Shown here: positions 44,986 to 49,606 of the stretch, one piece after another | Layout of the letters: every line of letters begins with the position of its first letter | Numbering within the stretch: the first letter of the stretch is position 1 | Origin: Candidatus Moraniibacteriota bacterium | GTDB lineage: Bacteria; Patescibacteriota; Minisyncoccia; Moranbacterales; GCA-2747515 | Direction: 5' to 3' | NCBI GenBank assembly: GCA_002747515.1 | Contig: PDPP01000020.1 | Span: forward strand, 1-59,747 | Length of the DNA: 59,747 nt | Notes under the pieces: generated by a model | The model's database searches: none | What the model was told of the DNA's origin: nothing | What the model saw: the letters and a program-made list of their open reading frames with translations, nothing else | Made by a program: the position numbers and the translations under genes

Positions 44986-45722
44986 AAAATAAGTATTGGT
45001 TGAAAAATAAGCCAATTGCACATCGTGGACTATGGACTGAAAATATTCCTGAAAATTCTTTTTTTGCTTTTGAAAATGCTATAGAAAATGGTTGGTCAAT
45101 TGAGCTGGATGTACAAATGACATCTGATGGTAAATTAGTTGTTTTTCATGACTGGAAAATTGATCGTATGACTGATATGAAAGGCAAAATCACAAAAATA
45201 TCATCAAAAAACATTTCGAATGTATATTTAGGAAATACTAAACAAAAAATTCCATTTTTTGTAGATTTGTTGGATTTTGTGGATGGTCGCGTTCCAATTC
45301 TTATTGAAATGAAATATCGTGGATTTAGAAAAAAAACATACATTGAAAATCTTTTTTCAGCACTTGAAGGGTATGAGGGAAAATATGCACTTTCTTCTTT
45401 TAATCCATTTCTCGTAAAACAAGCAAAGGAAAAATTTGGGAATATTTTATGCGGTCAAAATTTTTCTGACTATAAGGAGTCGGGGTTCATTATTGGACGA
45501 TTGAAAAAAGCAAGCGTATATTTTTTGTGGAAGATGAGTTTGCATATTCCAGATTTTATCGTTTGTTGTGCTTCAATGATTCCGAATGCATATATTGAAC
45601 AAATTACAAAGAAAGAGAAGTTGCCATTACTAGTATGGGCGATTAAAGATAAAAAGGAATATATACAAAAAAAACAATATATAGATAATTATATTTTTGA
45701 TCAAAAAATATTTGAGATTTGA
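44982..45722 (+). CDS. Glycerophosphodiester phosphodiesterase
   Basis: IAHRG, PENS, IELDV..TSDG.LVVFHD, IEMK. Confidence 0.92.
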   Translation: MKNKYWLKNKPIAHRGLWTENIPENSFFAFENAIENGWSIELDVQMTSDGKLVVFHDWKIDRMTDMKGKITKISSKNISNVYLGNTKQKIPFFVDLLDFVDGRVPILIEMKYRGFRKKTYIENLFSALEGYEGKYALSSFNPFLVKQAKEKFGNILCGQNFSDYKESGFIIGRLKKASVYFLWKMSLHIPDFIVCCASMIPNAYIEQITKKEKLPLLVWAIKDKKEYIQKKQYIDNYIFDQKIFEI

Positions 45723-45863
45723 AGAAAAATTATTTTTTACACAAAATAAAGATTGGGAAAATGTATTTGATAAAAAAACAGAATTTTGTTTTTATGAATA
45801 AAATTCTGTTTTTACATTTGATAATACAAAAATAGGGATTGTATATTTTTTGGTTTTTTAATA

Positions 45864-46160
45864 TTATTTCACGATATTTTTAATACGTTCAGCTTCTTGT
45901 TCAAGCGTAGGAGATTCTTCGTATTCTCCATGATGTCGTGTATCATCGCCATATGTATGTTTTTTTTGATCGATGTGAAAGCTGACGTGCAAGTCGCGTC
46001 CTTTGAGTGTGACATACATGTGAAATCGCGGATAACCAGCGCGTGCCATGATACGCACAAAACTCATCTCACCTTGGTCAGTGTAATGTTGAAAGGTGTA
46101 CCCAGCACGACGTAGTGCTGTTGTGGGATTTGTTGAGAGATTTTCGATGATAAAACGCAT
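45864..46160 (-). CDS. Hypothetical protein
   Basis: 98-aa ORF with YPRFH, H.DQK and H.GEY motifs. Confidence 0.7.
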   Translation of the reverse strand: MRFIIENLSTNPTTALRRAGYTFQHYTDQGEMSFVRIMARAGYPRFHMYVTLKGRDLHVSFHIDQKKHTYGDDTRHHGEYEESPTLEQEAERIKNIVK

Positions 46161-46263
46161 AATTTTAGTACATATAATGTATTTGACAGTATATCATATA
46201 CCCAGTAGGCATTCAAAGATGTAATATTGAAATTCAGTTTTGACAAAAATTGCGAGTATGATA

Positions 46264-46283
46264 TACTTTATTTAGATAAAGTG
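46264..46283 (+). promoter_or_regulatory. Putative HisR/YerC operator overlapping the yerC promoter
   Basis: Palindrome TACTTTA-TTTAGA-TAAAGTG; overlaps TATACT (46262-46267; TTGACA at 46240-46245) and abuts TGATATAAT (46282-46290). Confidence 0.7.
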
Positions 46284-46298
46284 ATATAATAAAATACA

Positions 46299-46622
46299 GT
46301 GATGAAATGGGACAATAAAAAAACGGAAGAATTGATTAATGTAATTTTGCTTTTGGAAAATAAAAAAGAAGCAAAAACTTTTTTGCGTGATCTTTTGACT
46401 GCTTCTGAAATAGCAGAGTTGAGTAATCGTTGGCGAGCGGCGCAAATGTTATCACAAAAAATTCCTTATACCAAAGTTGAAAAAGAGACGGGGCTTTCTT
46501 CTACGACGGTAGCGCGCGTTTCGCGTTGGTTGCAAAAAGGAAAAGGAGGTTACAAGGCGATGATTACTAAGGTAAATGCACTTCATCATAGCTCTTCCTC
46601 TTTCGAGAAAGGGTTGGATTGA
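46299..46622 (+). CDS. TrpR-like YerC/YecD (HisR-type) repressor
   Basis: FLRDLLTASEIAELSNRW, ETGLSSTTVARVSRWL..G.GGY. Confidence 0.92.
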   Translation: MMKWDNKKTEELINVILLLENKKEAKTFLRDLLTASEIAELSNRWRAAQMLSQKIPYTKVEKETGLSSTTVARVSRWLQKGKGGYKAMITKVNALHHSSSSFEKGLD

Positions 46623-46676
46623 TTGTGTGTAATGATTAGTCAATATAACTCTTTCTCGGTAGAGGAAGAGTTTTTT
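46584..46676 (+). promoter_or_regulatory. Ribosome-coupled transcription attenuator embedded in the yerC 3' end
   Basis: CAT CAT codons, then mutually exclusive hairpins ending in terminator AACTCTTTCTC-GGTA-GAGGAAGAGTT-TTTT. Confidence 0.7.
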
Positions 46677-46777
46677 AATACAGTAACAGAAATCAAAGGG
46701 AAGTGATTTTTCCTACTAGCAAGAAAGATTTATATTGGAAAAAATGTTTATTTTAAACCTAAAAAAGGAGAAGTAAA

Positions 46778-47290
46778 ATGACTATTGAGATTAGAAATGC
46801 AATTGGAATTGAACAATCTGCGCTCGAAAGTTGTGCAAAATTGTATTGTGATATTTGGCGCGAGCCACCATGGAATGAAGATTTTTGGAAAGAGGAGAAT
46901 GTATTGATTGATATGGAAAAGCAGTTGCAAAAGGATGATGCAAGGGCTTATTTCGCGCTTTGTGATGAAAAAGTCGTTGGTTTTACTTGGGGATATATTG
47001 TATCGCCTAATGAGATGAACGTTATTTCAAACACTGATTTTTGGTCAGGAGAGGATCTTTTCTATATCGATGAGTTAGCGGTTAAGAAAGGTTTTCGTTC
47101 CAAGGGATTAGGTAAACAATTAACTCTCCAAATCATTTCAGGCTTAAAACACAACGCGGTTTTGAGAACGGACCAAAAAGCTCAAGCGGCCAGAGAAGTG
47201 TATCGCAATTGCGGATTCTCTGAATTGCCAGTTATTGATGGAGTGCATGCTAGTCGTAGTTATTGGATTAGAAAGCTTAAATTAACCTAA
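46778..47290 (+). CDS. GNAT N-acetyltransferase
   Basis: EPPWNE, YIDELAVKKGFRSKGLG, AREVYRNCGF; AAGGAG RBS. Confidence 0.9.
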   Translation: MTIEIRNAIGIEQSALESCAKLYCDIWREPPWNEDFWKEENVLIDMEKQLQKDDARAYFALCDEKVVGFTWGYIVSPNEMNVISNTDFWSGEDLFYIDELAVKKGFRSKGLGKQLTLQIISGLKHNAVLRTDQKAQAAREVYRNCGFSELPVIDGVHASRSYWIRKLKLT

Positions 47291-47353
47291 ATACCGAGGG
47301 GAGCGAAAAAAATCTCGCTCCCCTAATCACTAAAATAATTTATTTAATGAAAA

Positions 47354-48067
47354 ATGATGAAAAAAATATTAGTTATTATTGCCACACATGGCGATGAAAA
47401 AATTGGCGGAGAAATTGTAAAAATGTTATTGCAGTCATCGTGCAAAAATGACTTTGATTATATAATTGGCAATCCTAGGGCATATGAAAAAAATACTCGC
47501 TTCATTGATGTGGATTTAAATCGGAATTATCCTGGCAGTATTTTTTCTGATTGTTATGAAGTAAAAAGAGCGGCTATTAATATGCAAAAAATACGAGGCT
47601 ATGATTATATTATTGATTTGCATGAGGCTAGCCAAGGTGAAGATGATTTTATTATCGTTCCCAAAAAAACTTTTCCAAAGAAAATTCCTTGGAATATTAT
47701 TGACATGGAAAAAGTGCTTCTGTGGCCTGACCCCACAGGACCATTGGGTGGAGTGGTTGAAAATGCAGTGGAGCTAGAATTTGGCACGAAATCACGTGAT
47801 AGAAAAATGGTAATATCTAAAGGGGCAAGAATTGTGGAAAAATTTATCACAGATGTTAATAGTAATCAGTTGATTGAGAATAAGAAACAGGTAGTTTATC
47901 TGGTTTACGGAAAGATAAAAGTAAAAGATGGAATGAATTTGGAAAAAGAAAATGTGTTACAGGATTTTCAAAAAATTATGTATAGAGGGGAGTTTTTTTA
48001 TCCACTGTTGGTCAATCAGTATCTCAAAGAGGGCATTTTATGCTATAAGATGCAGAAGGAAGTATGA
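47354..48067 (+). CDS. Succinylglutamate desuccinylase/aspartoacylase-family deacylase
   Basis: THGDE, NPRA...RFIDVDLNRNYPG, IDLHE, ELE motifs. Confidence 0.85.
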   Translation: MMKKILVIIATHGDEKIGGEIVKMLLQSSCKNDFDYIIGNPRAYEKNTRFIDVDLNRNYPGSIFSDCYEVKRAAINMQKIRGYDYIIDLHEASQGEDDFIIVPKKTFPKKIPWNIIDMEKVLLWPDPTGPLGGVVENAVELEFGTKSRDRKMVISKGARIVEKFITDVNSNQLIENKKQVVYLVYGKIKVKDGMNLEKENVLQDFQKIMYRGEFFYPLLVNQYLKEGILCYKMQKEV

Positions 48068-48148
48068 TATTTTAGAGCATTCATTTCTTATGGATTAAAA
48101 AGTGTCATTTTCAATATATTTTCGGATAGTTGTCTTATATGCCTACTT

Positions 48149-49606
48149 CTACTGCACCCAGTGTTTCTTTTTGAATTGTGCATCGTCTTCTTTGCGCTTT
48201 TCTGCGATTTTTTCTTGTGCGAGATGTTGCAGGGTGGTGAGGTTTTCATTTTTGAGTGCATGTGCACGTTCTGAGAGGTGTGCGAGTGTGTTTTTTGTCG
48301 GGTCTTCGATGACTTCAGCGAGGAGCACATCGAGTACAGCGCCAATTTGTGGTCCGGGTGCGAAATCGAGATCTTTAATCATGATATTTCCGTTAAGTTT
48401 GAGCATTTTAACACTCACAGGATCATTGGATACTTTGTCTACCATGTATTCGAAGTGTCGTAATTTATATGGCTTTGCTTTTGCTACACCTGAACCAAGT
48501 CTGTCTCCAATGCGTACATCCATAAGATCTTTCATGTTTTCAATGCCTACTTTTTTTATGATGCGACGTACAGCTGTTTCTGTGACCTCATCGACATTGT
48601 AATAGAACATGTGATTGCGGACGAGAAGGACTGTTTTATCTATAATTTTTTTTGGAAAACGCATTCTTTTCATGAGATTTTTTGTGAGACGTGCACTGAT
48701 GTATTCATGATTATAAAAAGTACAATCACGTCCCTTGCCTTTTTTTGATTCTGGTTTTCCAATGTCATGAAAAAGTGTTGCGAGACGCACTTCTAATTTA
48801 TTGCTTGGACAATTTTGTAGTGAAAGGAGATTATGATCCCAGACAGTTAGTGTATGGTGGTGATTTTGTTCGACACCAATGCCAATTTCAAGTTCTGGTA
48901 AAAAATGTGTGAGCAGTCCTGTGTCATGAAGTGTATCTATACCATGAGCAGGGTGGTGACTTTTAACAATATGTATAAATTCATCACGAATACGCTCCAT
49001 TGAAACATGTGTGAGAAGAGTGTTTTTTTCTGAGATTGCTTTGAAGGTTTTTTCTTCGATTGTGAAATGAAGCTCAGCAGCAAAACGTACTGCACGCATC
49101 ATGCGAAGTGCATCTTCATCAAAACGTTCAAATGGATTACCAACGGCACGAATTATTTTTTTTTCAATATCTGCTTGACCGCCAAATGGATCAATTAAAT
49201 TATTATTTACATCAAGTGCAAGAGCATTCATTGTAAAATCTCTACGGGAAAGATCTTCTTCAAGTGTCTCAGAAAACTGCACTTCGTCAGGGCGACGTCG
49301 GTCAGAATAAGTAGATTCAATACGATATGTTGTTACTTCTATAACATCATGTTCTCTATCGGATTTACCAAATGGGAGAAATGGTTTCACTTTTACTCCA
49401 ACAGTGCCAAAATTATTTTCATAAAAACTGTCAGGAAAAATTTCTTGCACTTTTTCAGGTCGTGCGTTTGTTGTGATATCCCAATCTTTTGGATTGCGAT
49501 TTAGCGTGAGGTCACGTACACAACCGCCAACAATGTATGCATCAAAGCCAGCATTATTTAATGCTGTAAGTACGTCTTTTACTTCTTGTGGTATTTTTGT
49601 AATCAT
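48149..49606 (-). CDS. cca: CCA tRNA nucleotidyltransferase with HD domain
   Basis: VGGCVRD, DWDITT, RRDFTMNA, EDALRMMRAVRF, FHDIGKP. Confidence 0.9.
   Translation of the reverse strand: MITKIPQEVKDVLTALNNAGFDAYIVGGCVRDLTLNRNPKDWDITTNARPEKVQEIFPDSFYENNFGTVGVKVKPFLPFGKSDREHDVIEVTTYRIESTYSDRRRPDEVQFSETLEEDLSRRDFTMNALALDVNNNLIDPFGGQADIEKKIIRAVGNPFERFDEDALRMMRAVRFAAELHFTIEEKTFKAISEKNTLLTHVSMERIRDEFIHIVKSHHPAHGIDTLHDTGLLTHFLPELEIGIGVEQNHHHTLTVWDHNLLSLQNCPSNKLEVRLATLFHDIGKPESKKGKGRDCTFYNHEYISARLTKNLMKRMRFPKKIIDKTVLLVRNHMFYYNVDEVTETAVRRIIKKVGIENMKDLMDVRIGDRLGSGVAKAKPYKLRHFEYMVDKVSNDPVSVKMLKLNGNIMIKDLDFAPGPQIGAVLDVLLAEVIEDPTKNTLAHLSERAHALKNENLTTLQHLAQEKIAEKRKEDDAQFKKKHWVQ

Follow-up and report, generated by a model that had tools for sequence, protein, structure and literature searches.

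A candidate histidine attenuator at the 3' end of the repressor gene hisR in Patescibacteria

Organization of the hisR locus

We describe here a hisR-like gene of a Candidatus Moraniibacteriota bacterium whose last codons appear to form part of a transcription attenuator. The gene lies in contig PDPP01000020.1 of assembly GCA_002747515.1, of which positions 1 to 59,747 of the forward strand, a stretch of 59,747 nucleotides, were analysed as a whole and are called the window below; all features are on the forward strand unless otherwise stated. It occupies 46302..46622, is related to the YerC/YecD repressors of the TrpR family (PF01371, TIGR02531) and encodes 106 amino acids from an ATG at 46302; the open reading frame (ORF) is open from a GTG at 46299, and the ATG was picked from the alignment of orthologs. 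Beyond the putative attenuator, the first gene encodes a GNAT-family N-acetyltransferase (46778..47290; PF00583, E 1.5e-11) and the second a putative AstE/AspA-like deacylase of the succinylglutamate desuccinylase/aspartoacylase family (47354..48067; PF24827, E 3.9e-12). A divergent 98-amino-acid ORF without a Pfam match (45864-46160, reverse strand) lies upstream of the hisR promoter.

The Trp_repressor domain PF01371 is matched with an E value of 6e-21 and 74.7 bits (cut-off 27), the domain ending at residue 91/107. The yecD_yerC model TIGR02531 scores 68.1 bits, above its cut-off of 42.2, and the model for TrpR proper, TIGR01321, reaches 25.6 bits, under its cut-off of 67.25. With the first two models above their curated cut-offs, the protein is placed with the YerC/YecD (HisR) members of the TrpR family; this, together with the HisR-type operator upstream, agrees with the HisR/YerC-like assignment made in the initial annotation of the DNA. 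YerC is the histidine repressor HisR of Ashniev et al., and histidine-stimulated DNA binding was shown for the HisR of R. gnavus (PMC9413887, of which portions are drawn on here and below). The predicted product of the window gene is thus a HisR-type repressor. Its relatives in the PDB (3frw, 3kor and 3g1c) all stop a few residues past the domain; the window protein ends in ...ALHHSSSSFEKGLD before the stop codon.

The operon is preceded by a sigma-70-type promoter (46240..46267), with a -35 box TTGACA (46240-46245), a 16-nucleotide spacer containing TG, and a -10 box TATACT (46262-46267); with 11 of 12 consensus matches it is the top promoter-like site in 45500-48500, judged by consensus match only. 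Overlapping the -10 box is a 20-bp palindrome of HisR operator type, TACTTTATTTAGATAAAGTG (46264..46283), which fits the HisR operator consensus given in PMC9413887, cacTTTAnnnnnnTAAAgtg. The exact core, ACTTTA-N6-TAAAGT, occurs only once in the window, and in the 1.08-Mb genome (35.4% G+C) the window operator alone has at least four of six flank matches. With a HisR-type operator over its -10 box, the hisR-GNAT-AstE-like operon would be expected to undergo repression by the protein that its first gene encodes.

Architecture of the hisR 3' end

The only His codons in hisR are the two adjacent ones, CAT CAT, at 46584..46589, and these are the proposed sensor. Directly after them comes segment 1 (46590..46600), which can pair with segment 2 or, in a long hairpin, with segment 4. 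Segment 2 (46605..46625) contains the TGA stop (46620-46622) and can pair either with segment 1 or, as an antiterminator, with segment 3 (46637..46657), which is itself the 5' arm of the terminator. Segment 4 and a run of six T occupy 46662..46676 (segment 4, 46662-46672; T run, 46671-46676). This layout had been read from the DNA in the initial annotation, and the His codons, the four segments and the T tract were all confirmed on the sequence, base for base. The pairing of segments 3 and 4 (3:4) had been taken for an intrinsic terminator, and a separate terminator scan picked it up independently (11 pairs, a 4-nucleotide loop GGTA and a T tail). The distance from the sensor codons to the U tract is about 90 nucleotides, and in trpL of E. 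coli it is about 80.

A repeat finder reports segments 1-2 against segments 3-4 as a 31-nucleotide inverted repeat, and the 121-nucleotide region folds at -46.1 kcal/mol versus -23.6 +/- 3.2 in 200 shuffles (z = -7.0, no shuffle as good). The genome has 215 ORF ends with a terminator-like hairpin no more than 90 nucleotides away; when the pairing of the ORF 3' end with the terminator 5' arm was scored for all of them, the window gene came first, at -20.3 kcal/mol (mean -4.3, sd 2.8). A repeat or mobile element was considered for the region and rejected: the 101-nucleotide region is single-copy in the genome, its two other matches being chance ones of 15-18 nucleotides. A known RNA family (an Rfam His leader, T-box or other cis-regulatory element) was likewise rejected; the window gives only sub-threshold microRNA-type matches to the long hairpin, and in 20 related loci Rfam at its gathering threshold has no match at the attenuator.

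A further segment of 22 nucleotides at 46716..46737, about 40 nucleotides upstream of the GNAT start, is 86% complementary to 46641-46662 and thus to segment 3. As a conserved fifth element it was rejected (z < -2 in 7 of 62 related loci, mean z -0.25), and it is probably not part of the conserved switch.

The histidine tail in related loci

An alignment of six orthologs served as the query for relatives in a scan of 185,579 species genomes. At least 562 were found, of which the best 80 loci were kept, and these are labelled Patescibacteria or CPR (candidate phyla radiation) almost throughout. The resulting set contains 82 non-redundant hisR loci after four duplicates were dropped (window, L005, L007, L037, L038, L040, L043-L122). 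An independent protein set was made of the 120 best matches from a collection of 5.8 billion proteins, 117 of which were scored relative to a GGY anchor. An operator of HisR type lies no more than 220 nucleotides upstream of hisR in 75 of the 82 loci.

The initial annotation had proposed a search of homologs for conserved C-terminal His runs, and these are present. HH, HHH or HHHH stands within the last 30 residues, the span over which such runs were counted, in 71 of the 82 loci, and 56 of the 71 have their last His 9-11 residues ahead of the stop; in the protein set, HH follows the GGY anchor in 97 of 117. The HH end and the four-segment layout are both shared by four orthologs (L037, L038, L040 and L041) that belong to the same order but to other families. 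The rest of the protein is free of histidine: outside the last 20 residues there is no His among 6,936 residues of the 82 loci, against 195 in 1,640 tail residues (11.9%), and the protein set has four in 10,032 residues before the GGY anchor against 263 in 2,432 after it. For comparison, His makes up 1.6% of the paralogous TrpR-like ORFs of the same genome group and 2.2% of the long ORFs of the window genome.

Several loci serve as natural controls. At L097, hisR has no His tail; 11 nucleotides further on there is a separate 22-codon ORF, MNKNCNKFNHHSQLFREEIGCF, with HH, followed by the same hairpins and terminator, and this mini-ORF is a predicted leader peptide of the classical kind. Neither HH nor the switch is present in L005/L084 and L007, where a convergent gene faces hisR, or in L111 and L119, where hisR and the next gene overlap by one base. 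Among the database proteins, P0083 has a tail-less ending like that of the L097 hisR, and in P0101, a related protein, HisR itself carries such a tail as a fusion.

Covariation and predicted folds

Covariation was assessed on alignment A3, made with MAFFT from 52 tails and not fitted to any structure; it omits loci with a His-to-stop distance outside 27-39 nucleotides or a stop-to-terminator distance outside 18-45 nucleotides. RNAalifold on the raw alignment predicted zero pairs, and the named structures were then counted on it. For the 12 pairs of the 2:3 antiterminator, 77.6% of cells are paired and the double-change count is 56 versus 27.2 in shuffled alignments, a value that 0 of 500 shuffles reach. 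The 3:4 terminator has 82.6% of cells paired and a count of 42 versus 25.3 (again 0 of 500 shuffles), and 1:2 has 66.6% and 33 versus 18.3, reached by 9 of 500. The covariation of these segments that had been expected of homologs is therefore found above shuffles for 2:3 and 3:4, and more weakly for 1:2. Compensatory changes occur at 10 of the 12 pairs of 2:3, one of which, for example, is GC in 22 loci, AU in 18, GU in 10 and something else in 2, and sliding the partners by 1-3 columns leaves 41-64% paired. A test that needs no alignment compares the duplex energies of segments from the same locus with those of segments from different loci: the means are -12.5 versus -9.8 kcal/mol for 2:3, -10.3 versus -7.6 for 1:2 and -15.1 versus -8.8 for 3:4, with 0 of 2000 permutations as good in each case.

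The spacing of the elements is also regular. Of the 52 loci in A3, 25 have the start of the last His codon 18 nucleotides ahead of segment 2 and 14 have it 21 nucleotides ahead; the stop codon stands at position +15 from the start of segment 2 in 41, and segment 3 begins about 27 nucleotides past the stop. With the ribosome footprint assumed to reach about 13 nucleotides past the first base of the A-site codon, segment 1 but not segment 2 is hidden by a ribosome modelled at the last His codon, and segment 2 is hidden by one modelled at the stop.

Folds were computed with either stretch masked in this way for 62 of the 71 HH loci, namely those with a hairpin at least 8 nucleotides after the stop, of -6 kcal/mol or better and followed directly by at least four T; the remaining nine have hairpins with interrupted T runs and stand outside these statistics. 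In the nascent transcript, taken as the RNA up to the end of the terminator 5' arm with segment 4 not yet made, 55 of 62 loci already have 70% or more of that arm in pairs under the His mask (mean -15.8 kcal/mol), and 1 of 62 does under the stop mask (mean -0.7 kcal/mol). The terminator itself has a mean energy of -14.7 kcal/mol over the 62 loci; in full-length RNA it is intact in 60 of them under the stop mask and is lost in 32 under the His mask. The window RNA folds at -45.7 kcal/mol when free, as the long hairpin, at -25.1 under the His mask, with 2:3 formed and the terminator absent, and at -14.6 under the stop mask, with 3:4 formed. The switch between 2:3 and 3:4 that had been predicted for RNA with segment 1 or segment 2 covered thus appears in the computed structures.

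Downstream genes and genome context

The next sizeable gene is co-directional with hisR in 73 of the 82 loci, and two contigs end too soon. It is seemingly convergent in the other seven, two of which are HH-less loci and four probably cases of shadow ORFs, the convergent gene of L067 being perhaps real. For a Pfam scan, downstream ORFs were called crudely: the nearest one of 80 amino acids or more within 450 nucleotides was taken, with ATG, GTG or TTG allowed as start. This gave 73 ORFs; nine loci had none that was usable (L005, where the first plus-strand ORF looked spurious, L007, L038, L040, L043, L067, L096, L102 and L117). GNAT is the commonest family among the 73, with 11, and is followed by HisG with 10 and PRA-CH (HisI) with 9; His-tRNA synthetase accounts for 3, histidinol dehydrogenase for 2 and AstE/AspA for 2. 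Other recurrent first ORFs encode radical SAM proteins (7, radical-SAM/SPASM), SLOG cluster 4 proteins (5, TIGR00725) and proteins like uridine/purine nucleoside phosphorylase (4). At L037 the attenuator is followed by a HisI (PRA-CH)-HisG fusion of 419 amino acids (1565-2824), and at L040 (minus strand) the corresponding frame is split into two overlapping ORFs, by a frameshift or an assembly error.

Homologs of the window GNAT follow hisR in 8 other loci, and homologs of the AstE-like protein lie downstream of it in 10, in 9 of them on the hisR strand. Together, GNAT and/or AstE-like genes are found downstream of hisR in 13 other loci, with the order GNAT then AstE in L089, L091 and L101. 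For the function of the GNAT protein, NCBIfam gives only weak, sub-cut-off matches (rimI, sat4) and the protein atlas only generic GNAT clusters. A GC-rich stem-loop with no adjacent T tract (47296-47327) separates the GNAT stop from the start of the AstE-like gene and may either stabilise the RNA between the two cistrons or terminate transcription weakly; an Rfam match to 'Plastid-psbM' at 47291-47364 is below threshold and surely spurious.

The window genome lacks hisG and hisI: tblastn finds nothing below E = 5, and PF01634 is not found there, though it is present in 14 of 14 control genomes. Because of this, the genes regulated here would be the GNAT and AstE/AspA-like pair and not those of histidine biosynthesis. 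No ortholog of the window hisR was found in 11 same-genus genomes searched (G001-G011), which gave paralog-level matches only; this absence, with that of hisG and hisI from the window genome, suggests patchy gain or loss.

Proposed mechanism and alternative explanations

Several hallmarks of a ribosome-mediated attenuator are found in the window: tandem cognate codons upstream of segment 1, mutually exclusive 1:2, 2:3 and 3:4 pairings, a 3:4 hairpin that is an intrinsic terminator, and a stop codon placed over segment 2. The one absent is a short dedicated leader ORF, the 106-amino-acid repressor standing in its place. We consider it likely, at a probability of roughly three in four, that a His attenuator of the trp/his type is built into the last 12 codons of hisR, with the tail of the repressor acting as the leader peptide.

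Two layers of control would then act on the operon. In the first, the HisR protein would sense free histidine and repress at the operator overlapping the promoter, as its family and the motif suggest. In the second, the ribosome translating hisR behind the polymerase would select 2:3 or 3:4. With His-tRNA scarce, the ribosome would stall at CAT CAT (46584-46589) and cover segment 1; the emerging segment 3 would pair with segment 2, segment 4 would be left without a partner, and transcription would read through to the downstream genes. With His-tRNA plentiful, the ribosome would reach the TGA in segment 2 and cover that segment, the 3:4 terminator would form, and the transcript would end after hisR. 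In RNA carrying no ribosome, either 1:2 together with 3:4, or the long hairpin of 1-2 with 3-4, would lead to termination as well. The His-free body of the protein would confine starvation stalls to the sensor codons, and the 1:2 hairpin may, by analogy, pause the polymerase until the ribosome arrives. Since basal transcripts would end after hisR, repressor mRNA would presumably still be made while the structural genes are off. From this arrangement we infer both that read-through depends on histidine and that transcription and translation are coupled over the 320-nucleotide ORF.

A number of observations weigh against such an attenuator. Some concern the RNA. The unmasked minimum-energy fold of the window region is a single long hairpin of 34 bp at -46 kcal/mol, 1:2 is the least supported of the three pairings, and the shuffle and permutation tests ignore kinship among the loci, whose sequences are related. 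Under the His mask, the full-length RNA of 27 of the 62 loci still has the terminator as its equilibrium fold, and because of this the model relies on kinetic pre-emption by the antiterminator, as in classical attenuators; the lead ribosome would moreover have to remain coupled to the polymerase across the whole 320-nucleotide hisR ORF. The initial annotation had held that a dominant long hairpin would argue against attenuation. The hairpin does dominate the unmasked fold; the objection itself falls away because the outer stem, 1:4, abuts the T tract, ribosome-free RNA still terminates, and only the masking of segment 1 frees segment 4.

Other points concern the sensor and the tail peptide. 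Enterobacterial hisL has seven His codons. Only two are present in 47 of the 82 loci, fewer than the three to five carried by the His leaders of Firmicutes (PMC9413887). Segment 2 is read in one common frame in 46 of the 52 aligned loci, which gives a recurrent [G/E]K[G/R]L in the protein, so that some peptide-level constraint on the tail is possible. The odd tail had at the outset been regarded as a by-product of RNA structure; that view fits six of the 52 loci, including the nearest relatives of the window, in which the same RNA motif is read in another frame, and the constant frame of the other 46 speaks against RNA structure as the sole cause of the tail.

The downstream genes raise the remaining difficulties. 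About half of the 73 first downstream genes have no obvious link to histidine, and L067 has both HH and the switch, yet possibly a convergent gene downstream. The window genome, without hisG and hisI, yet keeps hisR, operator and attenuator in front of GNAT and AstE-like genes, whose specific roles were left unassigned by family searches. Histidine genes in the hisR regulon are seen in relatives; in the window genome, the sole strong operator precedes hisR-GNAT-AstE.

The alternative that survives best, though we think it improbable, is that the hairpins are simply a long intrinsic terminator of a monocistronic hisR that reaches into the coding region, and that the HH tail serves the protein itself, for example by binding an effector or metal, and does not act as a translational sensor. 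The 34-bp unmasked hairpin followed by T's is what such a terminator would look like, and the constant segment-2 frame and the 27 loci in which the terminator persists under the His mask fit as well. A plain terminator, however, needs no 2:3 pairing, and 2:3 co-varies as strongly as 3:4. Nor does a protein feature explain why the body contains no His at all, why the HH and hairpins of L097 are found on a separate mini-ORF with a HisR that has neither, or why solved structures of the family stop right after the domain. The co-directional downstream gene in 73 of 82 loci also argues against this alternative, as does the lack of HH and switch in loci where a convergent gene faces hisR.

A shade less probable still is an attenuator that is coupled to translation but responds to ribosome traffic or coupling in general (a slowdown, or no translation), with the His codons incidental. 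Besides the loci with just two His codons and the many downstream genes that are not histidine genes, this alternative can draw on the 11 of 82 loci in which adjacent His codons are absent, six of which (L045, L054, L055, L074, L083 and L113) have lone or separated His residues (HxH and the like) and keep the hairpin set. If the codons were incidental, one would not expect 71 of 82 loci to keep HH at a constant distance in a protein with no His elsewhere; moreover, the gene is that of a predicted histidine repressor with its own operator, and hisG, hisI, hisD and hisS recur among the targets. That the two palindromes, 1:2 and 3:4, are instead binding sites in DNA or RNA for HisR or another factor (of PyrR or TRAP type, or a second operator) is very improbable: the two hairpins of the window are near-identical palindromes and a regulator is encoded just upstream, as in the B. 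subtilis pyr operon, but the HisR operator is a distinct and well-conserved motif upstream of the gene, the hairpin sequences differ among loci with a nearly invariant helix-turn-helix recognition helix, the pairs change by compensation and G-U wobble in the manner of an RNA helix, and 3:4 has a T tract behind it.

The attenuator built into hisR is thus the reading we retain, and by the predicted features of the collected loci it is widespread in the CPR. It appears probable, with somewhat less assurance than the attenuator itself, that across the Patescibacteria HisR has gained the sensor peptide of a His attenuator as its C-terminal end, so that one gene reads both free histidine and charged tRNA-His, that the body of its product has been purged of histidine to leave the tail as the one place where the ribosome can stall, and that this is the first full-length functional protein to serve as a leader. 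The novelty lies in the fusion, because the translated sensor is a 106-amino-acid regulator and not a short dedicated leader; the logic of attenuation and the protein family are both known. The initial annotation had considered the arrangement undescribed, and our searches of the full-text literature for an attenuator inside hisR, or for a full-length protein as attenuator leader, found no description of either.

To our knowledge, leader-peptide attenuation, a textbook mechanism, has been linked throughout to very short ORFs that serve no other purpose. If the present proposal is true, the sensing ORF can be a real regulator of 106 amino acids, and scans for mini-ORFs in 5' leaders would miss the whole class. 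The locus would represent a compact two-input module, for free histidine and charged tRNA-His, in genomes of about 1 Mb with scant characterised regulation and with at least 562 relatives. Tight coupling of ribosome and polymerase would be predicted for uncultivated CPR bacteria, and the His-free body of the repressor would be a clear case of selection at the codon level by a regulatory mechanism. The GNAT and AstE/AspA-like pair and the radical-SAM, SLOG and nucleoside-phosphorylase genes would be flagged as histidine-controlled, providing leads to histidine-related metabolism in auxotrophic CPR bacteria.

Comparison with known systems

The proposed switch resembles the trpL and hisL attenuators of E. 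coli in its tandem cognate codons, its exclusive 1:2, 2:3 and 3:4 pairings, the stop codon masking segment 2 and the terminator with a U tract, and in relatives also in the his genes downstream. Unlike them, it has no leader of 14-30 codons; the ORF is the 106-amino-acid HisR, with His codons only in the tail, and a separate leader is seen in L097 only. The E. coli trp operon is under dual control, with TrpR responding to the free amino acid at the promoter and the trpL attenuator to charged tRNA, and the locus described here would similarly place two layers, a TrpR-family repressor and an attenuator, on one operon. In E. coli, however, the gene for the repressor is not linked to the operon and the leader is a mini-ORF of its own, whereas here both sensors would come from a single gene, the first of the operon. 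The B. subtilis pyr operon has pyrR first and an attenuator between pyrR and pyrP, and thus the same order of regulator gene, attenuator and structural genes; the switch there is mediated by the PyrR protein, which binds RNA, and is not set by a ribosome on the 3' end of the regulator's own gene.

Regulons of HisR have been described in Firmicutes, Actinobacteria, Proteobacteria and others, with autoregulation and a hisR gene heading the his operon in Proteobacteria and Elusimicrobium (PMC9413887). The window protein is of the same family as these regulators (TIGR02531, PF01371) and has the same type of 20-bp palindromic operator. It differs from them, as far as the portions of PMC9413887 drawn on here describe them, in the C-terminal His tail and in the attenuator inside hisR, neither of which appears there, and in its predicted regulon, which is the GNAT and AstE-like pair and not his or transporter genes. 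The same source proposes attenuators with His leaders for the Bacillus cereus group, Eubacteriales and Erysipelotrichales, solely in lineages without HisR, and in those portions makes no mention of Patescibacteria, though its supplementary files might list more taxa (PMC9413887). An example of a leader with a second role is peTrpL of Sinorhizobium meliloti, a 14-amino-acid leader peptide that gained a function in trans (PMC7298713, also drawn on in part). There, as proposed here, a single translated ORF provides both the sensor of an attenuator and a trans-acting product; unlike peTrpL, the sensor in hisR would be carried by a full-size DNA-binding regulator.

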